DNA from: an uncultured Planctomycetia bacterium
GTDB taxonomy: Bacteria > Omnitrophota > Gorgyraeia > 2-01-FULL-45-10
NCBI GenBank assembly: GCA_964352425.1
Contig: CAYGRZ010000004.1
Span: forward strand, 2,647-66,646
Length of the DNA: 64,000 nucleotides
Reading direction: 5' to 3'
A program made the translations under genes and the position numbers. A model generated the notes under the pieces. That model worked only from the letters and a program-made list of their open reading frames with translations. It made no database searches and was not told the DNA's origin. Position 1 is the first letter of the stretch, and every line of letters starts with the position of its first letter. Of the stretch, positions 425 through 63,910 are shown piece by piece.

Positions 425-505
425 AGGGTAATATTATATCAAATGGGCGCGCTTTGGGGGAGATTTTTCGGCAGCTACAAGAGCGGCGGTGACTTTTGGG
501 CACTC

Positions 506-539: not shown

Positions 540-587
540 ACCTTCCGAAAGTAAACGCCCTCAGGTGAAGCAGAAAAATTTTCCTAT

Positions 588-1607: not shown

Positions 1608-1632
1608 ACAATTCCCATGATTGATTGCAGAT

Positions 1633-1692: not shown

Positions 1693-1703
1693 ATTTCTAA
1701 ATT

Positions 1704-2666: not shown

Positions 2667-2681
2667 CGCATCACCTCTATG

Positions 2682-4711: not shown

Positions 4712-4716
4712 CTCTT

Positions 4717-5598: not shown

Positions 5599-5611
5599 CC
5601 GCCCCGCCCCC

Positions 5612-6556: not shown

Positions 6557-6632
6557 AACTGTCTCCTTTTAGAATGTCTGTAATATCAGGGCAAAAAACA
6601 ATTACGGCCGCTTCATTGTGAATATACCACAA

Positions 6633-19105: not shown

Positions 19106-19127
19106 GGCAAGGCTTCCTCTACATAAA

Positions 19128-19162
19128 GCGGATAGGCGCTTCTGTGAGATGCGCCTATCCGC
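19128..19162 (-). terminator. Perfect 12-bp GC-rich hairpin (gcggataggcgc / gcgcctatccgc, 11-nt loop) 15 nt after the stop of the CBM-only gene. It is probably a partial terminator or an mRNA-stabilising stem-loop.
   Basis: Read directly. It is followed on the minus strand by a TTTATG context and the RBS of the next gene. Confidence 0.5.
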
Positions 19163-19176
19163 TGCGATACCGGTGC

Positions 19177-22181: not shown

Positions 22182-22183
22182 TG

Positions 22184-35356: not shown

Positions 35357-38300
35357 TTATGCCGAGCTACGGATCAAGGCTATGCCGTCCCAGTATGCCC
35401 TGAGCTCCGTTCCGTAGTTGAGCGGCAGTATCGGCGGCATGAAGTTATATATATCGCCATTCTTGGTGACGCCCGGAGGCAGCTGGCCTTCCGCGACTGC
35501 ACCCGTTACCATCAGGAAGAGCGCCTCGTACGAATTGATCGCCGGCACGACCTTCACGCCGTTCATCTCGATCTCTTCGGCGACGAGCACCTTTTCTCCG
35601 GCGGACGTGGGCTTTCCAAGTTCTGAGGCCTCTGCAGTGATACCGATATTGCCCATACTCTTCTCGTCCAGGCCTGCGGCATCTACTACATCCGCCCTGA
35701 TGTCGGCGTATGACCGGTCCTTCTTATTGATGAGTTTGATATCATTGACATTGCCCGTGTAACCGGATGCCGCGATAAAGGAGCGCGCTGCTTCCTCTGT
35801 CTTATATATATCTCCATAGATGAAGCAATTGACGACCTCTCCTCCGGCCTGTTTGCCTAGCGCTTCGGCCCTGTTCATGCCCTTGCCGAAGCGTATGTTG
35901 GACATGGCCATCTTCTCTGTCGTCGCCATGGCGAATTTCTTAACCGCGCTCCGGGCCATCAAGCTCTTGAGGGAGGAGGCGTCCGGAAGCTCCATAGGCC
36001 TGTATGCCTTCGTCTTCGTAGCGAGCTCGTCCCTCCGCTTCTCGACGATCGACGTTACTGTGTCGTGTAACCGCTGCCGCAGGGCAGGGTCCTTGGCTGC
36101 TGCCATGCTCGCTGCATCCAGGAGATTGTCCCAGTCCATCTTTTCTGTTCCCGGCAGCATGGCCTTGATCGCCTCGGCGATCTCCTGCCTCGTCGCATCA
36201 TCGATACCGGCCATCGCGAATATCACGTCATAGGCGCGGGCCAGCCTGATCGAGGCGATGTCCTGCTTGAATTCCGCGGATGTTATCTGGCTTACGGGCA
36301 TCGTACCGTCAAGGAGTATGCGGGCGGGGCTTCCTTCTGAAGCCATCTTCCTGAGCTCTTCCTCGCCCGTAACACTGACGACCCTGGTCCCGGTGCCGTA
36401 CGCGCGCCCAACCGCCTCCACCGTTTCGGCGGACGCGCCAGCCAGGCCGATGATGAATGCCGCAGCGCTGACTTTCGCCGGCTTCGGGAGCGGGAGGCCT
36501 TCGGCGGGTTCTTTCATCTCAACTGTCTCTTCCAACCGGTGTATGAGATCGCCGACATATCCTTCGCCCGATGGCTCCCGCGCAGATTCCATCATAAGCG
36601 CCGTTTTGACCGCCTGGTCGGTGATGTACCTTTCATTCACCGTCACGGGCGCAGGGCGCATCCTGTCAAGCTGTTTCCATATGACGTATGCCGCGGCGGC
36701 CGCGGCACCGATCGCAAGCACCATCCACGGCGGGAGCGCCAGATAGACGAATATCCCGAGAAGAATGAACGAACCGGCTTCCACGAGCCTCGGCGTGGTC
36801 GTCGTGGTGGTGGACTGGCCCATCCTCGCGGTGAACTCGGCAATAAATTCCGGCTCATTCTCTATCCTCTCGACGACGACCTGCGTCTTATTTCTGACGA
36901 TCTTATTGATCTCATCGTCCGTTTTCGCCTGCCAGTTTTCGAGCAGGTCGCCGCAGGCAGCGGCAGAGCACTGCCCCGCAACCGTCTTCAGCTCGGGTAT
37001 CATGCCGTATATGACGCCCGGTATCATGAATATATTATATTTTTTCTGCAGGTACAGGCTGAACATGAGCGTTTTATGATACCGCGCCGCGTCGCCGCAG
37101 ATCGTGACCGGCAACCCCCGCTGCGCTGCCTCTTTCACAACGCCTTCGATGATCCCGAGTATCTGTTTGTCATAATCATGGGCGGTGATCCCGCTCCTGT
37201 CCTTCTCCTTGACGCTCGCCGTCATGTCGTTCGAGCCGATACTCAGGAACCGTATCGGCACGAGCCCGTTATCGAGGATCAGCATGAGATTCTCGAACGT
37301 CAGGTTGCCGGCCTTGTCCATAACGAGGTCCCGGTGCTCGACCATGATGCCGATGGGCATCTCGTCCAGCAGCCTGACCACCTCCGCTTTCTCTTTGCGG
37401 GCACTTCTGAACATCTTGTGGTGCTGCGCGGCGAGTTCGTCCATGAACTGCTCGGTCTTTATCTCTTTCAGGAGGTCGCTGATGAAGACGATATCATCCA
37501 TCGTCTTCACCATCGGGAACATCATCCTCAGGTTGTGATAGTCGGATAACATCTGGGCCCGCAGGATCGCGGTTATCTGCGTCTTCAGCGCCTCGCGGCC
37601 TGTCTTCGTCCTGTAGTAATCGAAGCTGTACGGCTTGCCATTCACGCCGGCCAGGCGCTCCGTATCGGGCAGGGCGGGGCATGCTTTATCATCCTGCTTG
37701 TCGAACGTCCTTATCGTGACGGTCTTGTTGGCGAGATTCGCCAGGCCCATATACAGCCGCTCCTGATGAGCAGCGTCAGGCGCCTGGCTTCTGCCGTACA
37801 TAAATTCCGTCCTCGCCAGCGCATTGCCGTTCGCCCCGCTGCTATATGCCGTTCTCAGCGCGCCGAGAGCCCCTTCATCCTCGATGCCGAATTCACCCTT
37901 CTCGAGGTTGTAACCGACGTTGATGTTGGCATAGACCGGGGTTTCGACGCCGTCGAGGGTCCTGACCACCTCATCCGGTTCTTTACTCTGTTTGGAGAGG
38001 TAGTAATCTTTGAGCGCCTTCGCCCTTGCTACCTTGACCGCCATCGCGGCGCCCTGATCGCTCGTCGCGGGTCCGGCATAGAAGTAGGCCTCGAAACCGG
38101 CCTCCGACACGTAGAAAGAGCAGGACGCGTTCGTGTGGGCGAGCTTTGCCAGGACGATCTTCGGCGGGCCCAGCAGCAGCGTCGCGCCCCGCGCCGTAGC
38201 GACGAGGGCGGCATGCTGCGAGGTCGAGCCGCCGGACGAGACGAATGCCTTGACTTTGTATTTCTCCGTGAGCGCGCGCAGGATAAGCTCGTCTTCGATG

Positions 38301-41300
38301 AGGCCCGCGGACACGACGACGATCTCCCTCTTCTCCTGCCTCGCCCTTTCCGCCACTTCGTCGATATCCTCGAGCCTGACCTCTTCGATATCGAGCTTGA
38401 GGCATATATTCTTCACGATCTCCTCGGCAAGCCGGCCCTCGTCGCTCCGCTTGCCTTGCGCATCCACAGGATAATTTGCTTCGAGCCATTGCCACAGGGC
38501 GAAATGCGCGGTATGGCGGGCCGTCTTTATCGTTTCGCTGACACCGCGGAACATGCGCTCGGCGACCTGGGCGGCGGTTGTAGAGGGCGACATCTCCGCC
38601 ATAGCCGCCGTGTGGCAGGCAAAATACTTGCCCTGTTCCGCCTCGACCCCGTCCTCGCTTATCACGTATCCTTCGTCAACGGCTTTTATGACGCGGATGA
38701 TCCTGCTCTTCGTGTCAGGCCTGGCGAACACAGGCACCTTCAGGAGCATTTCACAGGCTTTCCTTACCTGGGCCGCTGCGCTGTCACTGCCGTTCTCGAC
38801 CCTGACATTCTCCAGGATGTGGTCATACAGGGCGATCATCGCCTTGAACACTTCCGCCATCTCTCCCGTCGCCGTCTTGAGATCTTTCTCAACCCGGTAG
38901 ACCTGCGGACGTATCCTGCTTATCAGGTGCGTCATCTCGTCGGCGGGTGATGTCCTGATGTGTTTGACCCGGTCGCCGACCTTGTACCCCGACTTCAGGC
39001 CATCGAGCGTGAGGCTGTCTTCAACATAGTTCAATATGATGCCGTTCCATACGCCGCCGGGCACACCGTTCGTCGCGCACTTATGTATGCCGCGCAGTTT
39101 TTCGTAACAGAGCCCGTACGCCTTATCGGACAGGGCCTTGGCGCCTTCAAGATTAACGGCGTTGGCCCTGCCAAGCAGCTCGGCCGCCGTCTCGGCGGAA
39201 AGCTCTTCCGCTACCGCAGGCGATTTCTGGAGCTGGAGCAATTCGATATACACGCCGTCGTAGATAAGGTCGAGCGTCCTGGCCCTTTCTATCCCGCGGT
39301 CGCCGACCATTGTTACAAATTCCTTATCGGCGCCGATCCTGTTCGGCGTGGCGATCAGGACCTGCGTCACCGGCACGTCGTGGGACGTGACCCTCTTCAG
39401 GTCATTCAGCGCAACGTGGGTAGCCGTCTGGCCGGCTTCTTTCGTCTTGCGTGCCAGCAGATACAGCTGCCACAGCTCGAATATCTCGTTATACAACTTG
39501 CTCTTGTTCTTGGGATCGACGACGTGGTTTTCCGTGAACATCTCGGTCAGGCATTTCTGCACAAAATCGACAGGCATGGGCTCTAAGCCGCGCAGCTCAT
39601 CGGGCAGCGTCTCTTTGAATACTTCATAGACATCGCGCTCTTCCCTTGCCCTGTCAAGCATCGCCTTCTCAATGCCTTCGCGGCCTGTCGCTTCGCCGAC
39701 AACGTCTTCGCCGACGGCCCTTGAGATGTAAGGAGCTGTCGCGCCTTCGGGAGGAGCCCCGACGGCGCCTTCCTGTCCGGCGGTGACCATGCCGAGCATC
39801 ATGCCTGCCGCCGCTATATTCATGGAGCTGATCTCGTGCCCAAAGGCTATGGAGGCAAGCGTACCGATGCCGGCAAGGAGCATCATCTTCGTCGTAGCAC
39901 TGAGGCTCTTGGACCTCTTTGTGAACCTTTCCACCACGCGGCTAACCCTGTCTTTAAGAGGCGCCGCTGCTGTAACGGCCTCTGCCGGAATAAACGACTG
40001 TTCGTTGATATCCACACCGACATCGAGATCGTTATTAAGCTTTTCGAGCAGGAGGTTGACATTATTCTCGTACACATTGCAGGACGGGCATTTATGTATG
40101 TCGAAATCTTTTCTGGCGCGCGTCGTCCCTACCAATATGTCATGGAGCCGCTTGCCGCCCGTGCTCAGATCACCTATCTGGAAGATCCTGTCTTCGAATG
40201 TCGGCTGGGCAGTGAGACAGCACCTGTATACTTCGCCCCACGGGTTGATGACGATCTTGGTCAGGGTGGCCCAGCAATCCCTGGGCATCTTGACCGGCTT
40301 GGCCGATTTTACAAGGCCTCCGGCCAATACGTTGAAACGCTCGGCTATATCTATCCTCATATTCCCGAACTCCCCGAGCCTCTGCATCTTCCTTATCTTG
40401 AATATCATCTTGAGGAGCCCTTTCATCTCCTCCTCGCTGAAGTCTCCGATCTTTCCTATGATGTCGGCCCTTATATCGAAGAAGTCCGCTCCCATGAGGT
40501 GTGCGAGCTTGATGGCCATGTAAAGCTCTTTATAATTCTGGGACATCGCGAGGAAGCTCACGCCGATGCTGACGTCGCTCTTAGTCTTCCTCTTTATCTC
40601 CACCATACCTCTTATATTGCTCTTTATCCACTCGACATCCGAGCCGGGCCTGCGGTAGACCGCCTCATAGGTTTCCGGCGTGGCCGCGTTGAAGCTGACT
40701 CGGATCTGTTTTGCGTGAGTGACGACCTCCTGAGCCCTGGCGGTATCAAGGAACGTACCTTCGGTATATATGTAGACATTCAGCCCTTTCCCTGCGGCAT
40801 ACTGCACGACATCTACACTATCCTTATTTGTAAACGGCTCTCTGCCGCCGGAGAAATAGATGTCTCTCACGCCGTTTGCTGCAAAATCGTCTATCAGGGC
40901 GAAGAGCCTCTCCTTATCAATGGCGGGCTTGCCCTGCCTGTCGGCATAGTCCCGGCCCTGGCTATAGCAGAAGATGCAATTGCTCGGACACTTCAGGCCA
41001 AGATGCAGCTCCACGATCTTCGGATATACCGGCTCACCATTAAGGATCTTCCTGACGTAATCCTCATCCTCCATGAGCAGCCGCGCTATCTTGATAAAGG
41101 TGGCGTTCGGCGACTCCATGGCGAGCATCTCCTGCATGAACTGGCTCGACTTCACTATCTTATACAGCTCCTTCAGGTCGCCTATATCGAGCCCTGTCTT
41201 TTTCATCACCTCATGGGAGGAGCTATACGGATAGAGCAACAACTCCCGCAATAGCCGCAGGAGCGGGATCCTCAGCCTGTCTCTCACCTCTATCCCATCC

Positions 41301-59300: not shown

Positions 59301-62300
59301 CTCAGGTTCTCTTTTATTGCTGCTTTTCTGCCGTTCTCTTCTATCTGTGCCGTATCAAGCGTCTTCACTTCGCTGGGAAGCTGCTCGCGCGAAGGGATCG
59401 CTGCCGCAGGCGGGGCGACTCCGGTGTGCGGCGCGGCCTCCGGCTTAGTGATCGCAACCTGCGGCGCTTGCGGCACAACGAGTTCGCTCTTCTCGAGAGC
59501 GTCAAATATGATACGTACATTTTTCCTCAGCCGCTTGAATCCGTCAAGCTCCTGAGGAGAATACTTCGATATCACTTTAAGCATGGCGGCCTGGGCTTCA
59601 TTCAGCTTTTCGCCGCGCGCCTGCGCAACCAGCGCTTCCGCTCTAAGCCTGTACTCTTCCTGCGGATACACGAGCGTCGGCGTAATGCCTGCGGATATTG
59701 CCACTGCCATGCCGAGCATCCGCGATAAGGATTGCGTAAACTCCCTTCCTGTGCGTTTTTCGATATTCATGTTATACGCGTAGATCACGCACGCCGCGAT
59801 GACCGTGACCGTAGCCGCGATCAGGTAGATGCCCAGGGCTGTGAGCGTAGCGCCCATGGCGCCGAAGAGGAAGTACGCCGAACCGCCGATCGTGAAGGCG
59901 TACATTATCACACTTCTCGAATTCGGTATAAAAGACATGAAGAACTGCCTCCAGAATCCCTGTCCCAGCTTCTCCGTCTCGCGGCCTATGCGCACGGCCA
60001 GCAGCGTCTGCATGGTGAGCATCGCTATGCCTATGATCGCTATCGGAAGCCCTATCATCCCTCCCATTATGGCGGTGGGAGTAACGACCGACAGGAGTCC
60101 GACAAGCCCGATACCTGCGGCCAGGCCCAGCACGCCTCCGGCCAGGACCGGCCATTTTGCCCTGTCGGCCTCGGCCTTCTGGGACATCGTGCTGGCACCC
60201 AGCATCACGGCCATGGACGCGCCTGCCGCGCCTTTAGCCGCGATCGAGGCGGCGATCTCGTCCGCCCCGAACTGAACCAGGAACATCACTACAACTGAAA
60301 CGGTAAGCGCCATTATAAAAGCATTGACGGCCCTGCCGAACCTGCCGGGGGCTATATCCTTTGCCTTTGACTCGAAATCTTTATTATAAATCATCGCGAG
60401 CATGATACTGGATATCAAAGCAAACAGGCTCGACCCGAATGCCAGGACGATGATGGGTATGCCGCCCAGGGCGATGCCGGGATGCGCGACCGCGATAGCG
60501 AGCGCGCCTATCGATGCCGGGATCCCCATCTGCGCCAGTACCTGCGCGACCATCATGCCGATCCATTTTATGGCGGCCACCGTGCCGCCCGTGAAGCCGC
60601 CCTTGCCTCTGCCCTGTACATATGCCATGAAGTGGTCGCTGGTCCTGTCGAGGGCCGATATCTTCAGTCCGGTCGCAAGGCGAAGCACCAGGGCCGGTAT
60701 CAGCATAGCACCTATGGAAAGGCCCGCGCCCATAAGATCGCTGTTCAACGTCGCAGTAAAAGGCGTAATAAGAGAATCTGTCAAAGGCCGTACGCCGTAA
60801 TAAGAGAATATGATGCCGACCCCCAGAATGAAAGTTATCATGGCTATCGACTTTATAAAGTTCGCCAGGAATGGGCTCAGGAAACCGGGCCTCGGAACAT
60901 CTTTGACATCCGCGACACTGCCCTTTAGAGCACCCGCCATATTATCGGCCGCGCCACGCCACAGACCATCTAAAATCGCCCTGAATTCTACCGCCACGGC
61001 ATCAAACTCCGTAAACTCTGTCGGCGGCTGGGCGAGCTGTATGCCGCGGGCGAGCTTCTGGGACAAATACCCCATCCGCTTTCTTATCTTCTGCTGACCT
61101 GTCTGGAATTTGGCGACCGCGCGTACCGCCTTCTCATTCGTGACCTGCCTGGCCGTTTCAAGCTCCACCGGATTCAGGCCGGCTTTTACCTTCTCGTATA
61201 CCGATTCCCCCTTCTCGTCTTTTCCTAACGATGCCTCAACAAGCCACTTGAATTTTTCCGGTGTGCTGGTGCCGTCTATGATATGCGCGATCCGTTTCTG
61301 TAAGTCGAAGATCTCTTTCTCTTTTTCGCGGCGCCTCTCGTCGTTCCTGTTCTCGGCGCTCACTATCATGTCCCACGCCGTGCCAACAAGCCCGCTTAAA
61401 TACGCTTTGTCCTCTGCAGAGCCTGTCGCCCTCGCTTTTCGGGCCGCATCCGCAAGCTCGTCGTATACCGACTTCAGCGTCTCTTTATTCTCCTTAAAGA
61501 CCGACTCGTCGAACGAGAAGAGGCACTCGTAGGTGCCTTCGTTTATTCCTCTGTCCGCACGCAATTTAGTCTGCGTCGCGAGGGCCCGGTATTTGTCGAG
61601 GTCAAGTGACAGGACAGCAAGCCCGGGGGCAAGCTTTCCTACTGGCGGCACCTCTACGGGGACCTGCTTACCGTCGGCAGCCGTTTCGGTCCGCTCGACA
61701 GGGTTGCCCTCAGGATCCAATACGGCTTTGCCGTCAGCGCCTTTTTCAAGATACCGTCCTTTTATACCTATATTTATAGCGCGGTGGAGTACGTTAGTGG
61801 CGATCGTGATCACATTGGCATACCCGCCCATGGCCACCGCCCTGCGCAGCTCTTCCGGATTTTCTCCGCTCGCCATGTTTATGATTATTCCGCGGGCCTC
61901 CAGCTCATTGTGCAGATTTTTCTCTATATAGTCCCTGAAGTCTTTGGCTTCCTCATCATCCCCCAGCTTTATGAGGATCGGCCGATTGTTCGCAAGCCTG
62001 TCACGAAGCTTTGCGAGAGACGCCGACCACTTCTCATCCCGCGTAGCGAAGCCCTCGTGGCCGAGATCCTTAAGCGTTATCTTCACGCCCTCGACGCGCC
62101 GCACCTCTCTTCCGAATATAGCCTTAAAGCGCGAGCCCTCCAGGGTACCGCTGGTGGCCGCAAAACCATCCGTCATCTCATTCTGGGTAAGGTACTGCAC
62201 TATGTTCTGGGCCGCCAGCGTCTCTGTCTCAGGCGAGATCTTCTCCGCTTTCAGCGCTATTTCGATAGCCTGCTGGAGCCCTTCGCCGAAATTCATCCCG

Positions 62301-63910
62301 ATCTTCTCGAACCCCGTAACCTCGTCGCGGACCGTAATCTTGCGGGTCGTTGGATCAATATACAGGTTCCGCCCGGAACCGTAGCGGACATAGAACCTGT
62401 GGGCCCTCAGGGCATCTACCGCGAACTCTTCCCACATGTCGTCTATTAACGCCGTAAGGTCGGGATATTTTGCCGTAAGCTTCCCTATCTCATCTTTGAC
62501 CCCCGGGCTCTTCAACCACGTTTCCATAAATAACGCCTGCTGCGGGTCGTCGTTGGGTTCCATAAAGGAGCTCCCGTTCTCCATCCATTTTTGCACAAGC
62601 GCATCTATCTCTTTCCGGATACGTATCCTGTCCTCGGAATCCGGGAGCGCGTCACCGGAGATTATGCAGGGCGTGGCAGACCCGAATACCAGCATGAGGT
62701 CCGCCTCATCGAACAGATCGAAATATTTGGTATTGCGCAGCGCCTTGGGCGCCCTGCCGAGCATCTCTCGTAAGTCCCTGTGGAGGAACCAATCCCATTT
62801 ACCATATATGATCGCGCATTTTTCGAATACATCTTCGATGGACGCCTTGTCTGTCACAAGCCGGCCATTCTCAAATATGACCCCCCGCTCTTCGCCGTCG
62901 GGACCGGTCAGTATGAAGCCGATGACACCGCCCTTCAACGTACCGCTCAGGATCTCGCCATAATGTTCATCTATAGCCTGCTGGACAGCGCTCTCTTCAT
63001 GGAGCATGATGATCGACTTCTTGCCCTGCTCTTCAAATTTCATAAGGCCGGCGCCTCCGAGGACGAGCGCCTTGCCGCCTCCTGCTCTCAGCTCTGTGGA
63101 CTCGCCGTCTTTCAGCGCGTTCATGGTCGGGATCTGACCTTCCCTGTAGCCTGTCCTCTTATCTGTGGGAATATTGTTTGCGTCCGCGAATCTCTCGTAT
63201 AGAACGCTTTGTAATTCTGTCAGTTTGATACCTTCCGGCGACAAGCGCATATAGCCTTTAACCGCCGGCGCTGCTGCTGGCGCCTCTTCTTTACGTGTTT
63301 CTTCGACTTTCCTTGCTTCATCCGTTATCCGCACTTCTTCCTTGCGTTTTTCCTCGGTTATCCGCGCCGCTTCCTTACGGGTCTCTTCGGCTTTGCGTGC
63401 CGCTTCGGCTATTTCTGCTTCCTCCGCGGCCTTCTTCGCGGCAGCCGCAGCTATTCGCGCTTCCTCAGCATTGCGCCGTTCCTCGGCTTTCTGCGCTATT
63501 TCTCTGGCTGCCTCTTCTGCCTTCCTTGTCTCTTCAGCTACCCGCTCTGCTTCGATCTTCTGCGCAATGACTTCCCGGGCTCTTTTGATATACGCGGCGA
63601 TACGCTCGGCCTCTTCGGGAGGCCTTTTGCTGATATTGCTAAGGAGGACGCCGAGCGCATGCTCTGCTCTCTCCTTGGTGACATTTTTATCCTCAATCGT
63701 AGCCATGGCAGCCGCGATTATATCCGGGGAAGCAACTTCTGCCGGCGGAGTGATGGCGGCCTTTTCCGTGGTAATCAACAGGGCGTTAGCAAGGTCAGAA
63801 ACTTTATTCATAAAATCTTTATAGCTATTTATTTCGGCGCTCGCTAGATAGTAGTCTTTCCCCTCCTTTATCGACTTTTGTACTATAGGGGCATTAATAA
63901 GATACGACAT
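35357..63910 (-). CDS. Giant 9517-aa composite protein (28,554-nt ORF). In order it contains a coiled coil, a SecA-like motor, 3 TM clusters, a GH144-like domain, TolC/OEP-like repeats, a YD-like beta-repeat region, an HExxH motif, a radical-SAM domain with SPASM/twitch extension and a PtsI-like PEP-utilising module.
   Basis: Single uninterrupted frame. I counted the residues in full and the count matches 9517. I verified an anchor: the CxxxCxxC motif at residues 7641-7648 maps exactly to nt 40967-40990. An in-frame stop lies 5 codons upstream of the ATG at 63910. Domain calls come from motif-level reading and are listed as separate features. Confidence 0.9.
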   Translation of the reverse strand: MSYLINAPIVQKSIKEGKDYYLASAEINSYKDFMNKVSDLANALLITTEKAAITPPAEVASPDIIAAAMATIEDKNVTKERAEHALGVLLSNISKRPPEEAERIAAYIKRAREVIAQKIEAERVAEETRKAEEAAREIAQKAEERRNAEEARIAAAAAKKAAEEAEIAEAARKAEETRKEAARITEEKRKEEVRITDEARKVEETRKEEAPAAAPAVKGYMRLSPEGIKLTELQSVLYERFADANNIPTDKRTGYREGQIPTMNALKDGESTELRAGGGKALVLGGAGLMKFEEQGKKSIIMLHEESAVQQAIDEHYGEILSGTLKGGVIGFILTGPDGEERGVIFENGRLVTDKASIEDVFEKCAIIYGKWDWFLHRDLREMLGRAPKALRNTKYFDLFDEADLMLVFGSATPCIISGDALPDSEDRIRIRKEIDALVQKWMENGSSFMEPNDDPQQALFMETWLKSPGVKDEIGKLTAKYPDLTALIDDMWEEFAVDALRAHRFYVRYGSGRNLYIDPTTRKITVRDEVTGFEKIGMNFGEGLQQAIEIALKAEKISPETETLAAQNIVQYLTQNEMTDGFAATSGTLEGSRFKAIFGREVRRVEGVKITLKDLGHEGFATRDEKWSASLAKLRDRLANNRPILIKLGDDEEAKDFRDYIEKNLHNELEARGIIINMASGENPEELRRAVAMGGYANVITIATNVLHRAINIGIKGRYLEKGADGKAVLDPEGNPVERTETAADGKQVPVEVPPVGKLAPGLAVLSLDLDKYRALATQTKLRADRGINEGTYECLFSFDESVFKENKETLKSVYDELADAARKARATGSAEDKAYLSGLVGTAWDMIVSAENRNDERRREKEKEIFDLQKRIAHIIDGTSTPEKFKWLVEASLGKDEKGESVYEKVKAGLNPVELETARQVTNEKAVRAVAKFQTGQQKIRKRMGYLSQKLARGIQLAQPPTEFTEFDAVAVEFRAILDGLWRGAADNMAGALKGSVADVKDVPRPGFLSPFLANFIKSIAMITFILGVGIIFSYYGVRPLTDSLITPFTATLNSDLMGAGLSIGAMLIPALVLRLATGLKISALDRTSDHFMAYVQGRGKGGFTGGTVAAIKWIGMMVAQVLAQMGIPASIGALAIAVAHPGIALGGIPIIVLAFGSSLFALISSIMLAMIYNKDFESKAKDIAPGRFGRAVNAFIMALTVSVVVMFLVQFGADEIAASIAAKGAAGASMAVMLGASTMSQKAEADRAKWPVLAGGVLGLAAGIGLVGLLSVVTPTAIMGGMIGLPIAIIGIAMLTMQTLLAVRIGRETEKLGQGFWRQFFMSFIPNSRSVIMYAFTIGGSAYFLFGAMGATLTALGIYLIAATVTVIAACVIYAYNMNIEKRTGREFTQSLSRMLGMAVAISAGITPTLVYPQEEYRLRAEALVAQARGEKLNEAQAAMLKVISKYSPQELDGFKRLRKNVRIIFDALEKSELVVPQAPQVAITKPEAAPHTGVAPPAAAIPSREQLPSEVKTLDTAQIEENGRKAAIKENLRYFKDNIDSSTGLPYNHILLDSSRKSIDSTGKYFNPTDAGVYLNCMMLVASGDAEMEGVTPAEALTRIRKALGSLQELQADKSQNISGLFWWYQFKHGTAVKDEARGVSAVDNGNLCWSLAALIGRFQDDGKNKDIAAAAQKIIDAQKKGWAALYDGNKKTTIGSGLLRAGYKLKTEYHLDRRYNESRIAPLWAILFSDGQVPVKAFTNMELPVTKTPYITREGEEIYAVYTWDGTVFQALLPNAWINESALSPEGYAKANLNTIAIHIDYALNVRGLPALLSTASGLKRGTYPVFGVPAIAETVAVFNNTKDVFTSAGSPHASALTGLVIPRVGSSLINSLKAAYPSVMTPQGWVDVITKEGTKGRTILAFDQGMLVLGLAGSKNSEYVEKYLKSVGKYSLLAEIYGAQKFDFAGVKPENILPEKAAPAPVPTAPVPTAPALSMPKPSVQLPATTIPAPAPSMLDRVKAGIRGIVRQKPDLAAARAAAKEAAEKEFAFMIKASENELNAKRTRAAEELKRKEAESLRLEGEQKELQRSVDSEIESVNSELGLLTTGAVEAQKKVTLGDVYRHGMESARAEATRSNTRIQRILAKKQSKWAQYAPELTLSAGIGSSATGNFVSYGAQLDWVVWDATRDISRVIARQNMEGGELEEYLYCYDLLLNIRKAMDIYKAAGTAEALAKDAYEKNLRALGEAYKQARARPSKAWPIQDLTARKEDAKRLYEVARQARERSLAMIRDLGDYDGADAVAIDTDDMTAVNQALQSELLALKEKAVRSRGKESGGDARALLKAFGIQSSILNEIFADKNSNFRLALHAKFSTTTRDVDATATEKAYSVTTTTPLGVGLTIKFPTTSTAEIQKLNTALSRTDLMEELGARYVNSVRLMKLLSLSRARLEVLQGIEADAAASAKIAKERADKGIISQVDYVKAEMIAVSSRGDAARIAATIENILSALEEMGFDRAAIPAGALNDETIDAIVDKRIDTMSREVVAYLRALSEKIGAEKTWLLFQNTREYADRLKQAADTLEQDMERLKEGQDARARAEQNRRALERITVAGAIQQAHIDEINNKYKIWKTVMVPGMSVSAAPYGTKAKDAMRYSVTLTSQKEGPLPQSVKDAREQFMAEAEGRLTPETRAIPPKDRKVLNFVYDWESKPIGAGLDIRIEGLPSKKKPMVMQRVAFLLMKERELVAAKNELMHREEAAGAALEANTKRIAALRDRIELEQELKKQLESSLEYQQKEGVYAGVAPDEVNVVNRQIKSSEDELLRLQAEGADLAVEIESLQSIAKEISDLKAAGKYDKAEADAAAIMALLRYLEAWEYAVAAARTGEPYDISLTGEYNILEDTWSFGAFTSLIPFFHNVTVGKFKPDVARTKKDQQMAIGGAERVVIGWINGYRADRDEVISATAGLDAAKEHKNKIAKGLADLEASTVSTPAAITGKRAELADASKRVVEAELVLQEVTAALERSGDRIKALEQQTAPRDGESKEIIKFRKYVEAALAKKDAITALDGKAVKEDAIQRSEEVAAAQAAVDKANIDVQSAWWRTFNIDVGPAYEKYGGADNVNKEIEKKEAATLWKINYRAEDAERYGFKAVSEPDIFFRGLRKANLDKEADVWSRKGVEFNKRMEIEQLYAQLAGERGKVASLLVMLNEQESQLRKIEEYNAHNPVLNDTRLDEYKALIDKTKEIKRAAESRIRLLQLSILYDLKEVGDITSITAAGKDEKEGKPADVNQLLAALTKEPEMKLPVDLDAIWADIVKNNPHIRELENRQKAALIEAAMGRWENIWLSLSASRFDKSYDQAAKKFVNKVDLAWSINLNIKLNKFRLFSWFGGGAKAKETANQLKRDIAQALKDLRKQLDDLMKERTGALKELEAAQKAYHDRPKIVAHMRKAYLEGKIGITQLKEQEEWLRRDEMTLADTIAKISAIDMRIEMLFNNLITKEDSEAFEKKKEAEALPAAGMPAEVAEKPAPAADAERLAAVSAELAIARQKVDILKGRMKELDGDAARIKSRIAPDMNLAKALEKGENNLYRKKIENAVSAEARKAVNSDEVSKIMGALGIKEKQAVSVANMLYRYGIAHKLNPADKDFGEFVEDLAYFSDVLKGEMAKIPKLPSFFEDHLKPLSWEDDLSYAKIGLPAYYARRVAFLMAENPGMTRAQARDRIMAKEAREDLENIGLYNRFDADLANKLEPSRQYLAWEDAVTRRLDRAEWAKLSTDERIDAANRSRDIAQLIHGRAVYEQGDALDSGVLGAVAALPIRNDWTGAQLAKNVELMNAIAPFIKGFYNLNEEAVLKMPEGARLMVLKLMGKRETPAYRQELAKVTDTILMGKTMWWTQFASDRDLSASQVERVLTILANVSKTIEPYIHLITGSEEEREGLRLAITIDVLINKNTWVGRFLNSDGLAPADEQKDNIRLLFTKAYPAAKNFKNLAGYSDAVMFGKHMAMARDFVELLGKEVIEESDTTLMDDIIAYRNEVNRLILDKPIAANQAEKELFVAIKIKQKEAAFGAALPEEEKKLIRDRAEEEFADIYRDGYLSSVADPFIVDDNYRRLSGIRKPVPLKDIAVKLNLRELVSDLADKRVVAISRKGTDFEMVRDHEVDKKIKELEKKADRYGVALDPRTVSSYMEAFRKDFYLVHRQGVINSRVDNFYDEGVTDAATIEKRLSAEFIVDALAKHHWRPLNGEEVANWAQVLLNFIYVSPAEKDLPDDEKYKILTGRMADPADLSIWQDNVKQMLAVTGNYTGTVGKAIRDITNVYTLIYFEQNGYIAAVDSIKKRLKQVEGMDDKKTFNDLFIALEKAGVLDGKIQKLRKSVKDPKFIAWEALRGSIEKVAKANDVYQQERFTKEKPAKLRQILSDIKELTDAYRSDPKMRGMAEFNLIRELEELAADLRDNDADIEEFAKEEPLESSFIKADSLLKKFDEVRKKAANARKEELKLRERLRDAVADREKALGEKLRLAEKAASPFAKEWFFPRMRQRIKNIFSPVSTQREEWEGLVKAVYNARLFYSLDTYREKVKDTLATSGAQIMYKKMQALAAKQGKEPADLMKEKMAEAKGELVNAVYLKAISRASGQEIEIGELGFLQAAIRFGNYLQDAKEKYLSQPRFKNLSQPERKETGDWFIRNKIAKYIRFEALIKREEEAMVKNQTDPNGVPRLSYGQITGTFMELDEAGKGEERETARIRRDFYDASLIQEWANNSPLGYYLGQKMLRNTIREMAQSETGVMTQRDKMQRRINIEFQSQRQYYTNLGPSIEEERNDLFNDQDQFSDIDIQRYNEHMEQLKAITETRPGYMRKARAEAIEKLGSFHKQITYMLLKTQDVPGEKIAGDVKSLDSMIFPDIIRNINLKLSERNKEWTIANKQQIDKWIDLREPVKDERQGKISAYKTRTADKALKDQDLAAIREDIEAVLPGINEQLPPEKRIDPADENSIWDIQRQIYLSGMTASDYLTKTFVHPLEVRELLKNIYSKSKLTPPMEKKLKYYVTQIDMDGWPIDYIRVQLLYGIYLKGEMEKLGVTLNEDALEILVSHMIYNGIMPVPMKAPGTDYYEVFGRRADTLTVEDLQGMDLPVSRTIKMVKEMTDKLASEKYTLDKKTREDLFYIIGLSLNTNIIEPPEAEIVDIEADKIQKIVASQFEDGRIELGKFEKDRDSIIREISQKLKARNIHPANFVKLVNRLIEVKEANAAISQSIKDPTMLGRLEKIRIERGDLEILAVLDKDGFDKDKVIGIMELKALGIKTGSPREKLLIQDVKAPMDVTWNDFQNDRLLSLHETLKNYLDDNVFKGKDPLSDVKLSLEAQEKIEGMSRRDREKMTARIKDRIISRGLVKIDYVKEGKGDTAIIRPRAVRAFSADQDARLQKVIRSIIEMELGKIAPEPKHKLIAGLTYMLISILSIMGFYKIALYRHRREIRKNKKILYGPNANVPAPGTAPAAPTPPVAGAKPAAAPKDTSGQAGAVTIEALMGLFRAMVFISKLVLTGLTLYHFNDITHFTVLGTYSSWLFILLAPVLVWWNYFIDKATKPPIRPVIKWAVPLAVFSCIYISGIPGLNYTLMALASGILVYITISAAVDFGRDTLKLAATAITGRGNQRELTHTFFARLAKLAITTAATSVTAIYALSTINADTSLLGIIAVAAVLYTYCNYCMAELFVAIGTLTVANGALFLGNMVGLFKERAPWDLPKYKLVEKTQRIAKKYKAVIYDIGRQEGPLDVKLIAKTLFDSMINSVKMERVGADKAKYLYEDSAGNKFVPDEQDNLGAWMHSDTALKEAGLIMEEIAQILNARRLWGRDKVTYAHRNFQKHVYNPTHMMKPGSYRSDFEWMLECWTHPHLYVTRLDDDRPKITVAEDASGTLRQGILAEPGTYTIDGVTGEAIVYSDTSKTTEVKRFPRGTYTRSPVYDEENEGFELVTDFAVELLKGEYAIERRTIKIDDREWQVSAESEVYYIDADNPARRYRLLKGDIYDDATGKLIATKDMYDELPKSGLLRDRNDSTQRAKGKDGQELPDRVATIYDQHIYLKDKSGAIRHTLILTKDGKLLDAATGAYFASIDEIGHIDQGVAYKKYILGADGKITPAVNEYGGEYLLTRAAEFDGQRPIIPENLETFIDTLDANGVITERGGAFVKTRAKEGEWKRDPETGNAVTITGDVLVPVGWWSADADGNLIVDEGLKALAGSWHVEKATGDAIHTASGRILAKYGTWKKDLKGDLYAGGITKQEAKLYAREGAITDFFELGLGKTGRETTYFIADRAHSLTRDAGGMLIADTSALRLREVEDGYLANEKDGFVIKGGELLQYPMDGSVSRYDKEPLRRWDLAKDGITSVVQDNIILDQKTEALKQSQRLARYGTFAKDNNGIYRTRRLLAQYDDVYFDGYGNAHLKTTDGELAASGEFVLDEDNNLRRIAVDAGDPVINMNGTFGAGEVAVDEKTGDLIVERTLQQKDGFDIDEEGWAIDNGKNRIARVGTYILVKRDAGYVYAKDMLGNEVEPDIYIQLPIEIDNKNEVISGVAKRIGSRAAYDILGKELWGMYQPQIQYPNIGKSLFARLQSWAQSMLSYISLVFFWIFGKGSAVGKMTFYGPKYLNDVIKKQVLPWTVRSHDFWEAMWTATAYLVGTLLAPIYILEETVTSFSSMIIRMRRWVPGDVEALRREWNAAKAMFAYAQGHGIEAMIAAKKQIRESVLGSANVNLESEHHISGIIRGMLSTPVFTIWLVVLGLIATQIPAVLTGTHPVTARDLFAIVMLILIGQKGSPILRETFERGPRSLKTWANVAGGLASVALLVALPKIIIAAPALAVWAAVVVLLIVILRNPVKKLISVGMKWTEIPVKIGMPAGLVAMFWAATPYIELCLRSVPSAAYLTEDLLKHNFGICAYTIIYVGIATLAGMLQHAMARAASGPALFVKDFFGMVNKVYLTTKRLAVETFLHTSIMMMNLIYGPLDLKKSTKAVIQGREFRWDTLTAVEARLEKGMTVWQAYKEFKWAPIAGITLLVLVLVGVFFPSDYFLFRIFDPAFVFKGFPIFILSWVFGPYAAWYTAKYGGTREHRTQPFQFMIHELNAWMKETGTVMGKAALSDGAAIQKIKELTKNETIYNKDRHALRLYILYLTELDLAGTDKQDLRNEVADAMKMMDLSEIELQHKKIKAWTETEWKGAWDQLNEFARVRVLNEIVKRQKGGLLAGQVDAVKLERINRIMEVLEAAGPRRFFEKYWPDLDIAKRQAVVTKSGATGLERLLDLPAPAAAPAAPAALAPSPIAMKAGVLGGRHDLAWATIIDGQVENYKGIDNGMKAALEALLQRVITLHDLSESAREKVEELLEMGSGDAAAIKRKALMKEKSIRIVEGNDRLMHFTEGADSITLDVDSLAANNELLFMEFIHELMHARLRSMPTNAPPLSPMEEEMYITSKEVELFLAFPQKTQDNILSALKNSDDLDDFKFHKVLQYARDYGISRSSTYLEDYIHSLYEPVGNLARRLKDARVDITQDNKALELAMEALKADGIEVRDRLRIPLLRLLRELLLYPYSSSHEVMKKTGLDIGDLKELYKIVKSSQFMQEMLAMESPNATFIKIARLLMEDEDYVRKILNGEPVYPKIVELHLGLKCPSNCIFCYSQGRDYADRQGKPAIDKERLFALIDDFAANGVRDIYFSGGREPFTNKDSVDVVQYAAGKGLNVYIYTEGTFLDTARAQEVVTHAKQIRVSFNAATPETYEAVYRRPGSDVEWIKSNIRGMVEIKRKTKSDVSIGVSFLAMSQNYKELYMAIKLAHLMGADFFDIRADIIGKIGDFSEEEMKGLLKMIFKIRKMQRLGEFGNMRIDIAERFNVLAGGLVKSAKPVKMPRDCWATLTKIVINPWGEVYRCCLTAQPTFEDRIFQIGDLSTGGKRLHDILVGTTRARKDFDIHKCPSCNVYENNVNLLLEKLNNDLDVGVDINEQSFIPAEAVTAAAPLKDRVSRVVERFTKRSKSLSATTKMMLLAGIGTLASIAFGHEISSMNIAAAGMMLGMVTAGQEGAVGAPPEGATAPYISRAVGEDVVGEATGREGIEKAMLDRAREERDVYEVFKETLPDELRGLEPMPVDFVQKCLTEMFTENHVVDPKNKSKLYNEIFELWQLYLLARKTKEAGQTATHVALNDLKRVTSHDVPVTQVLIATPNRIGADKEFVTMVGDRGIERARTLDLIYDGVYIELLQLQKSPAVAEELSAETAAELLGRANAVNLEGAKALSDKAYGLCYEKLRGIHKCATNGVPGGVWNGIILNYVEDSLTLDGLKSGYKVGDRVKHIRTSPADEMTHLISRIRPQVYRVEKDLKTATGEMAEVFKAMIALYDHILENVRVENGSDSAAAQVRKACEMLLKVPVFARPDTKSRIIRVIKAVDEGYVISEDGVEAEQGKYFACHTAAMAEMSPSTTAAQVAERMFRGVSETIKTARHTAHFALWQWLEANYPVDAQGKRSDEGRLAEEIVKNICLKLDIEEVRLEDIDEVAERARQEKREIVVVSAGLIEDELILRALTEKYKVKAFVSSGGSTSQHAALVATARGATLLLGPPKIVLAKLAHTNASCSFYVSEAGFEAYFYAGPATSDQGAAMAVKVARAKALKDYYLSKQSKEPDEVVRTLDGVETPVYANINVGYNLEKGEFGIEDEGALGALRTAYSSGANGNALARTEFMYGRSQAPDAAHQERLYMGLANLANKTVTIRTFDKQDDKACPALPDTERLAGVNGKPYSFDYYRTKTGREALKTQITAILRAQMLSDYHNLRMMFPMVKTMDDIVFISDLLKEIKTEQFMDELAAQHHKMFRSARKEKAEVVRLLDEMPIGIMVEHRDLVMDKAGNLTFENLMLILDNGLVPIRFLSIGSNDMTASVKEKDRSGITAHDYDKQILGIIEGVVKEAAQRGLPVTICGDAARYHKTLMFSLYLQKKYNIFMIPGVIYGMIPELKTVAGQCSAAACGDLLENWQAKTDDEINKIVRNKTQVVVERIENEPEFIAEFTARMGQSTTTTTTPRLVEAGSFILLGIFVYLALPPWMVLAIGAAAAAAYVIWKQLDRMRPAPVTVNERYITDQAVKTALMMESAREPSGEGYVGDLIHRLEETVEMKEPAEGLPLPKPAKVSAAAFIIGLAGASAETVEAVGRAYGTGTRVVSVTGEEELRKMASEGSPARILLDGTMPVSQITSAEFKQDIASIRLARAYDVIFAMAGIDDATRQEIAEAIKAMLPGTEKMDWDNLLDAASMAAAKDPALRQRLHDTVTSIVEKRRDELATKTKAYRPMELPDASSLKSLMARSAVKKFAMATTEKMAMSNIRFGKGMNRAEALGKQAGGEVVNCFIYGDIYKTEEAARSFIAASGYTGNVNDIKLINKKDRSYADIRADVVDAAGLDEKSMGNIGITAEASELGKPTSAGEKVLVAEEIEMNGVKVVPAINSYEALFLMVTGAVAEGQLPPGVTKNGDIYNFMPPILPLNYGTELRAYWDGIALIRSSA
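36941..38353 (-). other. PtsI (PTS Enzyme I) / PEP-utilising-enzyme-like module: phosphohistidine swivel domain plus PEP-binding TIM barrel (residues ~8520-8990).
   Basis: Colinear matches to E. coli PtsI as I recall it:
- KAFVSSGGSTSQHAALVATARGATLLLG vs [27 protein letters not shown] (His shifted by one position);
- ALARTEFMYGR vs GLYRTEFLFMDR;
- VTIRTFD vs VIVRTMD;
- LRMMFPMVKTMDDI vs LRIMFPMIISVEEV;
- IGIMVEHR vs IGVMVETP;
- FLSIGSNDMTA vs FFSIGTNDLTQ;
- TICGD vs GMCGE. Confidence 0.65.
40061..41038 (-). other. Radical-SAM domain with a SPASM/twitch-like C-terminal extension (residues ~7625-7950).
   Basis: CPSNCIFC (CxxxCxxC) at nt 40967-40990, verified on DNA. A glycine-rich SAM-binding segment IYFSGGREPF follows. 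Downstream lie CWATLTKIVINPWGEVYRCC (C-x13-G-x4-CC) and CPSC. Confidence 0.75.
41648..41662 (-). other. HExxH zincin-like motif (HELMH, residues 7417-7421) in a helical region upstream of the radical-SAM domain.
   Basis: Local context LFMEFIHELMHARLRS. The motif alone is weak evidence for a metalloprotease. Confidence 0.25.
42641..44143 (-). other. Transmembrane cluster 3 (about 10-12 helices, residues ~6590-7090).
   Basis: Helices such as SYISLVFFWIFG, TIWLVVLGLIATQIPAVL, LAVWAAVVVLLIVIL, ITLLVLVLVGVFF and PIFILSWVFGPYAAW. Confidence 0.55.
44231..46273 (-). other. Beta-hairpin repeat region (residues ~5880-6560) with recurring xDxxTGxxI / YDxxG units (YD/RHS-like, low confidence).
   Basis: Units such as DIYDDATGKLIATKDMYDE, TKDGKLLDAATGAYFASIDEIG, YDDVYFDGYGNAHLKTTDGELAASGEF and DEKTGDLIVERT. 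Confidence 0.35.
46751..47638 (-). other. Transmembrane cluster 2 (residues ~5425-5720), containing a Pro/Ala-rich linker (APGTAPAAPTPPVAGAKPAAAP).
   Basis: Hydrophobic helices, e.g. LIAGLTYMLISILSIMGFYKIAL and WLFILLAPVLVWWNYFI. Confidence 0.55.
53411..57763 (-). other. Region containing several TolC/outer-membrane-efflux-protein (OEP)-like repeats (beta-strand pairs followed by long helices), residues ~2050-3500. It is preceded by a Pro-rich linker (PAPVPTAPVPTAPA).
   Basis: Pattern matches to the OEP family: LSAGIGSSATGNFVSYGAQLDWVVWDATRDISRV..., ARLEVLQGIEADAAASAKIAKERADKGIISQVDYVKAEMIAVSSRGDAARIAATIENILS, and DLAWSINLNIKLNKFRLFSWFGGGAKAKE...LEGKIGITQLKEQEEWLRRDEMTLADTIAKISAI. Confidence 0.45.
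58061..59353 (-). other. GH144/DUF3131-like (alpha/alpha)6 domain (residues ~1520-1950), paralogous to the three standalone hydrolase-like proteins of this window.
   Basis: STGLPYNHILLDSS...GVYLNCMMLVASGD matches NGLIKDSS...VAAVGFGLAAICVG. GLFWWYQFKHG...VSAVDNGNLCWSLAALIG matches GFLYHFLDMRTG...VSSIDTALFIAGALYAGE. YTWDGTVFQALLPNAWIN matches CYTGSLFTYQYSHAFID. Confidence 0.5.
59651..60883 (-). other. Transmembrane cluster 1 (about 10 hydrophobic helices, residues ~1010-1420).
   Basis: Repeated 20-25-residue Ala/Gly/Ile/Leu-rich stretches (e.g. MITFILGVGIIFSYYGV, GIPIIVLAFGSSLFALISSIMLAMIY). Confidence 0.6.
61481..63148 (-). other. SecA-like preprotein-translocase motor module (NBD1, preprotein-binding domain and NBD2; residues ~255-810) with degenerate catalytic motifs.
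   Basis: Colinear matches to SecA from my memory of its sequence:
- ELRAGGGKALVLGG vs EMRTGEGKTLTATLP (Walker A: GK kept, T replaced by A);
- AIIYGKWDWFLHRDLRE vs DITYGTNNEYGFDYLRDN;
- LFDEADLMLVFGSATPCIISG vs [21 protein letters not shown];
- ALRAH identical;
- GLQQAIE vs GLHQAVE;
- VITIATNVLHRAINIG vs VTIATNMAGRGTDI (motif VI);
- LRADRGINEGTYECLFSFDE vs [22 protein letters not shown]. Confidence 0.65.
63281..63628 (-). other. N-terminal Lys/Glu/Ala-rich coiled-coil segment with degenerate tandem repeats (residues ~95-210).
   Basis: The protein repeats (RKAEETRKEAARITEE / KRKEEVRITDEARKVEETRKEEA). A matching ~24-36-nt periodicity (cttcc...gcg units) is visible in the DNA. Confidence 0.6.

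Follow-up and report, generated by a model that had tools for sequence, protein, structure and literature searches.

Giant proteins encoded by the Omnitrophota have been described in two studies. West-Roberts 2023 (bioRxiv 10.1101/2023.11.21.568195) reported giants with numerous transmembrane (TM) regions and a divergent SecA_DEAD domain without scaffold and wing, together with Radical_SAM domains, pyruvate-phosphate-dikinase (PPDK)-type domains, glycoside hydrolases (GH) and adjacent carbohydrate importers, and suggested that these giant proteins undergo proteolytic processing. Nielsen & Lui 2026 (bioRxiv 10.64898/2026.06.07.730766) presented 916 long proteins, 94% with TM helices or signal peptides and 80% sequence singletons, and described TM-anchored multi-enzyme long proteins with a sugar-metabolism module (PGM, radical SAM, ROK) as well as a SecA_DEAD architecture cluster of 20 proteins. 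Giant open reading frames (ORFs) of Omnitrophota have been confirmed with long reads and manual curation (bioRxiv 10.1101/2023.11.21.568195; bioRxiv 10.64898/2026.06.07.730766). Here we analyse a gene for a protein of at least 9,517 aa, hereafter the giant, that lies in 64,000 nucleotides of contig CAYGRZ010000004.1 (assembly GCA_964352425.1), deposited under an uncultured Planctomycetia bacterium and placed by GTDB in the Omnitrophota; this whole stretch is referred to below as the window. A first-pass annotation, made from the sequence alone, had proposed that the giant combines SecA-, TolC-, GH144-, radical-SAM- and PtsI-like modules.

With high confidence, the protein is a genuine Omnitrophota-type giant mosaic protein, and it constitutes a sequence-unique new member of the class already described. 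The first-pass interpretation proved right for about two-thirds. The domain combination had been considered undescribed, a view that does not hold since published giants already combine TM helices, divergent SecA, radical SAM, PPDK-type and sugar modules. At the level of sequence comparison the chain consists of two conserved cassettes, a SecA-like motor with a membrane domain and an Enzyme I (EI)-like module with a C-terminal domain, and of variable cargo between them. Carried as cargo are a GH192 domain and a helical scaffold of about 3,500 aa, followed by TM clusters 2 and 3 with a beta-rich region between them, and lastly by an HExxH mini-module and a radical SAM domain resembling DesII. 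As to homologous megaproteins and the conservation of their domain order, both end cassettes recur in other Omnitrophota proteins, the first in at least 9 further giant ORFs and the second in about 12 large proteins, whereas the intervening cargo is variable. Added here to the description of the class are the definition of the cassettes at residue level, a GH192 domain with its catalytic pair in a beta-1,2-glucan locus, glucan-related cargo in relatives, the recognition of a complete EI homologue that begins with an ACT-like domain, and an enrichment of HExxH motifs. The accessions for GH144, GH192, OEP and PEP-utilizers_C are absent from West-Roberts 2023 and Nielsen & Lui 2026, no literature link of Omnitrophota with GH144 or GH192 was found, and a beta-1,2-glucan locus is unreported for Omnitrophota in the searchable literature.

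The ORF consists of 9,517 codons and a stop, starts with ATG and yields a single terminal stop on translation; residue i of the giant corresponds to window position 63910-3(i-1). It takes up 44.6% of the window, in agreement with the single uninterrupted ORF covering 45% that was first noted. Its frame is free of stops in all nineteen consecutive 1.5-kb segments, whereas each alternative frame has some 10-40 per 500 codons; GC3 exceeds GC1, which exceeds GC2, along its whole length, so that the coding periodicity is uniform. The stated length of 9,517 aa stands only as a minimum: upstream of the ATG the frame continues without a stop over the 90 nt that remain to the window edge, no Shine-Dalgarno sequence was found at this candidate ATG, while the next gene has one (AAGAGAGGGG), and the part ahead of the SecA-like module, 244 aa in the giant, ranges from 150 to 3,180 aa in homologous ORFs. 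The start is therefore undefined and probably lies outside the window. Self-BLAST detected no internal repeats at E<1e-3, and collapsed repeats are thus no concern for this ORF. GC3 rises to 0.73-0.80 in the last ~1,500 codons (window 35360-39900) relative to 0.60-0.71 in other parts of the ORF, roughly coinciding with the EI-like cassette and the C-terminal domain, and this may be a trace of the mosaic origin of the chain. Near the N-terminus, residues ~100-215 appear coiled-coil or single-helix-like, as judged from sequence and composition; a metagenome scan with the N-terminal 360 aa gave no match.

The SecA-like motor of the first-pass annotation was recovered by phmmer against the PDB, where residues 367-795 align with residues 162-577 of SecA (E=5e-16), and canonical SecA proteins match it at 1e-11. 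Its Walker B motif reads FDEAD (residues 400-404), and both the PPXD-like insertion and NBD2 align with SecA, although the SecA Pfam scores lie under the gathering thresholds (GA; 21.1 vs 27 and 18 vs 24.6). The Walker A motif reads AGGGKA, with K280 kept and with alanine (A281, window 63068-63070) at the Ser/Thr position that is retained in five Omnitrophota relatives; moreover, motifs V and VI have in part degenerated. Competence as an ATPase is therefore uncertain, and the motor may have weak activity or none. The A281 codon is GCG, where threonine would be ACG; the change is either genuine and inactivating or an error in a single base. Only the first scaffold helix aligns, there being neither a wing domain nor a C-terminal tail before TM cluster 1 begins at residue 1011. 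No SecA_SW (PF07516) match was obtained in the giant, and this domain is absent from the precomputed Pfam lists of fragments P0001-P0005 and present in canonical SecA matches.

All three TM clusters that had been proposed were found. The topology was assigned by hand, and in cluster 1 the K/R-rich loops of the 10 clear helices all lie on one side; residues 1398-1416 form a conserved uncharged 19-mer, weakly hydrophobic, that could be an 11th helix. The membrane domain holds motifs that are invariant among relatives, yielded no credible match when its profile was compared with the PDB and Pfam nor any match in a word-indexed search, and is fused to a SecA-like motor in every relative. When genomes were scanned with aligned SecA modules of the giant type, 23 loci were returned, the best of them from metagenome-assembled genomes (MAGs) of Omnitrophota, some mislabelled 'uncultured Planctomycetia', and a metagenome scan added six further loci; none of the relatives exceeds 41% identity in these scans. 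When the whole giant was used in tblastn, residues ~245-1500, comprising the motor and all of TM cluster 1, emerged as one conserved unit of ~1,300 aa that is 32-37% identical in L001, L002, L004, L005, L006, L008, L024 and L026. Across nine genome and metagenome loci identity is 25-37%, and eight of these carry the full span. Motor and TM cluster 1 thus form a conserved N-terminal cassette.

Downstream from this unit the similarity between the giant and its relatives stops, with the exception of L008 which carries a GH192-like domain at the same position. According to Pfam, the cassette is followed by MdoG (52.7 bits) in L001 (540-12617), by OEP in L005, and by Glycoamylase (55.8 bits), PG_binding_1 (52.2 bits), DUF3131 and OEP in L008. 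MdoG, Glycoamylase and PG_binding_1 are periplasmic or secreted module types, two of them beta-1,2-glucan-related. Their occurrence directly after the same TM domain constitutes the main, indirect evidence for an exit of the chain from the cytoplasm beyond TM cluster 1, and the cargo of L001, L005 and L008 suggests a subfamily of giants with periplasmic-glucan-related modules.

The domain that follows cluster 1 in the giant had been described as a GH144-like (alpha/alpha)6 domain. The clan was correctly recognised and the family was not: residues 1530-1949 align with chain residues 44-444 (of 447) of PDB entry 8XUJ at E=2.3e-53, while the Pfam model for GH144 (PF10091, Glycoamylase) scores 20.6 bits against a gathering threshold of 27. 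Entry 8XUJ is EeSGL1, the founding endo-beta-1,2-glucanase of GH192 in clan GH-S, for which E221 and D149 were identified as catalytic by mutagenesis (PMC12102758). Both residues are kept in the giant, E1722 (in NESR) corresponding to the acid E221 and D1648 (in VDNGN) to the base D149. The module is therefore assigned to GH192 rather than GH144 and, with its catalytic pair intact, is predicted to be a glucanase.

The second cassette, near the C-terminus, bears out the proposed PtsI-like module that utilises phosphoenolpyruvate (PEP). PEP-utilizers_C (PF02896) matches residues 8686-8950 with 77.7 bits (GA 22.8), and the barrel motifs ARTEF, TIRTFDKQDDK, GIMVEH, SIGSND and ICGDAA align with the C-domain of T. 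tengcongensis EI. They include R8700, R8734, E8858, D8894 and C8938, whose roles we take to be those of their counterparts in E. coli EI. The swivel histidine H8566 is located in GGSTSQHAALVA, and the phospho-His position is kept in at least 90% of 10 aligned homologues. Modelling of residues 8060-8640 together with nine homologues was confident (pLDDT 86, pTM 0.75), and fold searches gave an EIN-like match, with ACT-like matches for the preceding segment. An ATP-grasp of the PPDK/PpsA type was rejected for the X domain of the cassette on the basis of these searches, and it follows that the cassette is of the EI type. The cassette is strongly supported as a complete homologue of EI that has an ACT-like domain in front. 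The score against PTS_I_fam (TIGR01417) is 82.8 bits relative to an equivalog cut-off of 341.7.

An exhaustive phmmer search with residues 7950-9067 yielded 13 cluster representatives at E<1e-30, and in BLAST searches residues ~8070-9040 proved common to proteins of 987-5,098 aa (35-44% identity) and to one of 7,326 aa (30%). None of these homologues shares the radical SAM, SecA or TM parts of the giant. Those bearing a source name are all from Omnitrophota and are named 'putative PEP-binding protein [Candidatus Omnitrophota bacterium]'. In two relatives, P0039 and P0116, HPr domains of the phosphotransferase system (PTS) directly follow the cassette (45-48 bits); no HPr motif was seen in the chain of the giant. 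A word-indexed search with the C-terminal 2,018 aa produced one radical SAM match only. A terminal TM segment, at residues 9045-9078, and the C-terminal domain of ~370 aa that had been noted are both present. Four of the EI-cassette homologues retain this domain, ending there in ...IRTAA or ...LSAAA, and there is a weak relationship (E=4e-5) between it and another C-terminal type, ending in ...YERYVxEVLxKA, in other giants. A profile of the domain found no PDB relative and there was none in Pfam; it may represent a common terminal anchoring or sorting domain.

Between the third TM cluster and the EI-like cassette lie two further modules of the cargo. The HExxH motif recorded earlier was confirmed at residue 7417; it occurs once, with ~0.1 occurrences expected by chance, and in 40 related large proteins (109 kaa) 13 were observed and 1.5 expected, an 8-fold enrichment. 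In the related giants its context is mostly a beta-strand followed by a helix that ends in HExxH. The stretch is probably a real, minimal zincin-like module falling outside all Pfam models, and it is a candidate for autoprocessing. For the radical-SAM/SPASM domain, the radical SAM part is clear, with PF04055 matching residues 7640-7775 at 40.8 bits (GA 29.5) and a CxxxCxxC motif formed by C7641, C7645 and C7648, while the SPASM part is partial, its profile scoring 18.3 bits (GA 21.5) and five cysteines (7879, 7897, 7898, 7941 and 7944) being present against seven in the family motif. The best named match is DesII, with 73.7 bits for NCBIfam (equivalog cut-off 450) and E=3.5e-12 in the PDB. A TM hairpin had been placed between the radical-SAM and PtsI-like modules; there is no hydrophobic segment anywhere within residues 7079-9041.

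The long helical regions that had been noted are present in the cargo, and a Pro/Ala linker (residues 1963-1982) lies near the start of this scaffold. Instead of multiple TolC/OEP-like repeats, a single profile match to OEP was obtained, full-length yet marginal, and the region shows no internal repeat, TolC itself having two in tandem; the outer-membrane-channel-like repeat array comes down to this one match. No relative of the region was found in the PDB at E<=10, a single-sequence AlphaFold model consists entirely of long helices and is too poor to use (pLDDT 48), and the OEP matches of L005 and L008 (28-29 bits) do not align with it. TolC-likeness was dropped on these three grounds. The YD-like beta-repeats proposed for the G/D/Y/T-rich region were likewise rejected, there being no YD/RHS match in Pfam at E<=1, no Y.YD motif and no periodicity; the region is probably beta-rich.

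All genes of the window lie on the same strand, with the giant at the head of a cluster. Directly downstream is a protein of 2,656 aa that has a signal-anchor along with PGM/PMM domains I-II. Over its first ~520 aa it resembles the N-termini of the Omnitrophota giants P0116 and P0036 (26-36% identity), and we assign it, on this resemblance, as a second large protein of the same class. Further downstream are three GH144 genes, an import system with a lipoprotein solute-binding protein (SBP) and two ABC permeases, a histidine kinase/response regulator pair, a HAMP protein, CBM11 and TPR proteins, a ROK protein and an M48 peptidase; most of the neighbouring locus proteins have signal peptides. 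A GH94 protein of 2,080 aa, with no annotation for its first ~1,000 aa, matches the GH94 domain of cyclic beta-1,2-glucan synthase at E=4.5e-106 and cellobiose phosphorylases at 1e-37. This protein was rejected as a glucan synthase, since neither GT84 nor GH189 parts were matched in it. Overall, the cluster headed by the giant is a beta-1,2-glucan utilisation locus, with which the GH192 domain is in keeping.

Two observations concern individual genes of the locus. The GH94 protein begins with a sequence resembling a signal peptide, an unusual feature in a phosphorylase. The ORFs listed for the response regulator (21513-22406) and for the SBP (22184-23509) have ~220 nt in common, and the receiver domain begins only at residue 78 of the regulator, whose true start is therefore probably further downstream than listed. 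Scans of the window for tRNAs and Rfam families gave no match. The features of the giant and its locus are listed in Table 1.

Table 1. Coordinates in the window of the modules of the giant and of the genes and locus around it.
Feature	Residues of giant	Window position	Strand	Basis
Giant ORF, >=9,517 aa; 5' end open at window edge	1-9517	35357..63910	-	
E/A/K/R-rich helical low-complexity stretch	~100-215	63266..63613	-	sequence and composition
SecA-like motor (NBD1, PPXD-like, NBD2, first scaffold helix)	~245-1010	60881..63178	-	PDB and SecA alignments
Polytopic membrane domain (TM cluster 1), 10 clear TM helices and candidate 11th	1011-1416	59663..60880	-	hydrophobicity and conservation
GH192-type endo-beta-1,2-glucanase domain (clan GH-S), predicted	1530-1949	58064..59323	-	PDB 8XUJ match, catalytic motifs
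Alpha-helical region, ~3,500 aa, no confident domain or internal repeats	1950-5425	47636..58063	-	sequence
Single marginal OEP (TolC-family) match	3290-3475	53486..54043	-	20.8-22.9 bits vs GA 22
TM cluster 2, ~7 helices	5426-5716	46763..47635	-	hydrophobicity
G/D/Y/T-rich region	5717-6589	44144..46762	-	composition, profile and periodicity tests
TM cluster 3, ~7-9 helices	6590-7078	42677..44143	-	hydrophobicity
HExxH at 7417-7421	~7380-7440	41591..41773 (motif ~41650-41662)	-	strand and helix context
Radical SAM domain, DesII-like, with 5-Cys partial SPASM/twitch	7527-7945	40076..41332	-	profiles, Cys motif
EI-like cassette: helical and ACT-like, EIN-like (swivel His8566), PEP-binding barrel	8070-9040	36791..39703	-	profiles, fold search, homologues
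Terminal hydrophobic segment (one long TM helix or hairpin)	9042-9078	36677..36787	-	hydrophobicity
C-terminal domain, ends ...LIRSSA	9153-9517	35360..36454	-	conservation
PGM/PMM protein, 2,656 aa		27147-35117	-	
Complete beta-1,2-glucan utilisation-type locus		588-27031	-	gene content
GH144 gene		6633-8699		PF10091, 81-238 bits for the three genes
GH94 protein, 2,080 aa		8696-14938	-	
GH144 gene		16814-19330		PF10091
GH144 gene		25089-26453		PF10091

Our preferred explanation, held with moderate confidence, is that of a membrane-threaded mosaic giant at the head of a beta-1,2-glucan cluster, for which we infer a mechanism of self-export, extracytoplasmic glucan cleavage and cytoplasmic PEP-dependent phosphotransfer. 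The SecA-like motor, with its own membrane domain, would act at the inner membrane and help to thread the glucanase and the helical scaffold to the periplasmic or outer face. There the GH192 module and the three secreted GH144 enzymes would cut beta-1,2-glucan, likely substrates being the periplasmic glucans, osmoregulated or cyclic, of other bacteria that may be prey. The resulting sophoro-oligosaccharides would enter through the ABC transporter of the locus, after which the Cgs-type GH94, the PGM-like protein and ROK would process them. Both the radical-SAM module and the EI-like cassette would remain on the cytoplasmic face, where the latter would autophosphorylate on His8566 from PEP and hand its phosphoryl group on to a partner, the recipient in relatives being an HPr domain; this phosphotransfer would couple or regulate the machine by PEP status. 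A location of modules in alternating compartments is plausible because radical SAM and EI chemistry need the cytoplasm and because relatives carry PG_binding_1, MdoG and GH144-type modules after the TM domain.

Several results weigh against this explanation. The topology assigned by hand gives an even count of 10 helices for cluster 1 unless residues 1398-1416 also span the membrane, and with 10 helices the glucanase would be cytoplasmic. Ambiguity of topology, the alanine in Walker A, accompanied by the degenerate motifs V and VI, and the failure to identify HPr or any other phospho-acceptor in the chain all weaken the proposed mechanism. In addition, the searches made detected no homologue for the cargo between the cassettes, the GH192 domain excepted, and the role of the cargo is therefore a guess.

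Among the alternatives, a polyprotein that is cut into separate enzymes, for example by its own HExxH module, is possible, if only tentatively so, and it is partly compatible with the membrane-threaded giant. It would account for the enriched HExxH motif with its recurring strand-plus-helix context, the Pro/Ala-rich linkers and the mosaic cassettes that are also found in much shorter proteins of 987-1,726 aa, and it accords with the processing suggested by West-Roberts 2023. However, no recognised peptidase family matches the chain, neither a third zinc ligand nor cleavage sites were identified in it, and several of the short homologues lie on short contigs and may be fragments. Were the chain to be processed in this way, its combination of modules would mean only co-expression and co-localisation.

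The giant could also be a membrane-anchored scaffold facing the cytoplasm, which we consider rather unlikely. Here the TM clusters would serve only as tethers, practically every soluble module would be on the cytoplasmic side, GH192 would act on imported sophoro-oligosaccharides and the SecA-like part would be a peptide- or partner-binding relic. The ten clear helices of cluster 1 with K/R-rich loops on one side would give an in/in topology, no signal peptide is visible in the part of the giant within the window, Walker A has its Thr to Ala change and motifs V/VI are degenerate, and Nielsen & Lui 2026 take long proteins with TM helices only to be cytoplasm-facing; furthermore, the three secreted GH144 enzymes already provide for the step outside. 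This interpretation is countered by the periplasmic or secreted module types (PG_binding_1, MdoG and GH144-type) located right after the same TM domain in relatives. Moreover, the conserved uncharged 19-mer at 1398-1416 may provide an 11th helix, and the N-terminus lies outside the window, where a signal peptide or anchor may be encoded.

At the other extreme, the SecA-like motor and its 10-11-helix domain could act as an 'auto-translocase' that exports its own downstream chain without SecYEG, the whole forming a trans-envelope glucan-harvesting machine with a PEP-driven phosphorelay of the EI/HPr type inside. We regard this as quite unlikely. The glucan-harvesting subfamily would then comprise the giant, with GH192, and relatives with MdoG/GH186-type, GH144-type and peptidoglycan-binding modules, and periplasmic beta-1,2-glucans (osmoregulated periplasmic glucans (OPGs) and cyclic glucans) of prey or host bacteria would be harvested.

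It is very unlikely that the locus and the giant make or remodel periplasmic beta-1,2-glucans of the cell itself (OPG-like) rather than catabolising foreign ones. In favour of synthesis, cyclic beta-1,2-glucan synthase provides the closest match to the GH94 domain, and one relative carries MdoG, named 'periplasmic glucan biosynthesis protein'. Yet neither in the GH94 protein nor in the giant was GT84 or another glycosyltransferase found, and the ABC importer, the ROK and PGM domains and the four endo-glucanase-type modules favour catabolism. OpgG and OpgD have been reclassified as beta-1,2-glucanases (GH186). Finally, a joining of several genes by a chimeric join, collapsed repeats or indel errors, to which the GC3 rise might point, is highly improbable in view of a stop-free frame of 28.5 kb whose three-base periodicity is uniform, the lack of internal repeats that could collapse, relatives with the same cassette in independent assemblies as uninterrupted ORFs of 4,026 to >7,246 aa, and the published validation of Omnitrophota giants by long reads and manual curation.

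If the membrane-threaded giant at a glucan locus is correct, beta-1,2-glucan provides a concrete, testable substrate for one subfamily of Omnitrophota giants, the proposed role of giants in 'prey cell-wall degradation' having so far been based on generic domain lists. The two portable cassettes can each be tested alone, the first as a SecA-like motor with a novel membrane domain and the second as ACT-like, EI-like and terminal domains. Thereby, the questions of how a chain of at least 10 kaa is inserted into or crosses a membrane, and why PTS-type phosphotransfer modules occur inside giants, become approachable. For annotation, GH192 and Cgs-type GH94 modules can be used to flag beta-1,2-glucan loci in candidate phyla.

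Compared with known systems, the motor resembles SecA in its NBD1, which has the Walker A lysine and the DEAD sequence of Walker B, in its PPXD-like insertion and NBD2, and in having the beginning of the long scaffold helix. It differs in lacking the wing, the remaining scaffold and the C-terminal zinc tail, in its Pfam scores below GA, in the Thr to Ala change in Walker A, and in being fused to its own domain of 10-11 TM helices, which has no SecY-like or other recognisable relative. With EeSGL1 (GH192, in clan GH-S with GH144 and GH162) the glucanase module aligns over ~400 residues and has the catalytic Asp and Glu in common, but as part of a giant chain it is preceded by a membrane domain and followed by a helical scaffold.

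PtsI and EI-Ntr (PtsP) share with the second cassette the EIN-like fold with its swivel His and the PEP-binding TIM barrel with Arg, Mg-ligand and Cys motifs, and HPr domains follow the cassette in relatives of the giant; PtsP, in addition, has an extra N-terminal domain of a small-molecule-binding type (GAF in PtsP, ACT-like in the giant). In contrast to PtsI, the giant scores far below the family cut-off, has a His motif that is one residue longer (GSTSQH) and a chain without HPr, and its module precedes a TM segment and a conserved C-terminal domain within a giant membrane protein. The radical SAM domain resembles DesII, a sugar-nucleotide-modifying radical SAM enzyme, and SPASM/twitch enzymes in its CxxxCxxC motif, in its best PDB and NCBIfam matches, both to DesII, and in a Cys-rich C-terminal extension; it departs from them in scoring well under the 450-bit cut-off and in having only 5 Cys in the SPASM region.

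In relation to the Omnitrophota giants ('Archaeovorin'-type and 'multi-enzyme metabolic cluster'), the protein, at >=9,517 aa with its frame open at the edge, compares with thresholds of >=30,000 aa in West-Roberts 2023 and >=10,000 aa in Nielsen & Lui 2026. Glycosyltransferase, methyltransferase, NUDIX, C39/S8 peptidase and dockerin domains were not detected in the part of the giant within the window, its PEP module, with an EIN fold and with HPr in relatives, belongs to the EI type and not to the PPDK type, and GH192 cargo in a beta-1,2-glucan neighbourhood is a link made in neither paper. Of the neighbourhood given by West-Roberts 2023 (T2SS/T4P-like genes upstream, an importer, PilZ downstream), no PilZ was found among the downstream genes in the window and the importer is present. 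The giant has in common with this class the many TM helices, the divergent SecA_DEAD and preprotein-binding region without wing or C-terminal tail, the glycoside hydrolase, Radical_SAM and PEP/pyruvate-utilising domains, the adjacent carbohydrate importer and sequence-unique cargo between shared modules, and its nearest homologues are all proteins of Omnitrophota MAGs.

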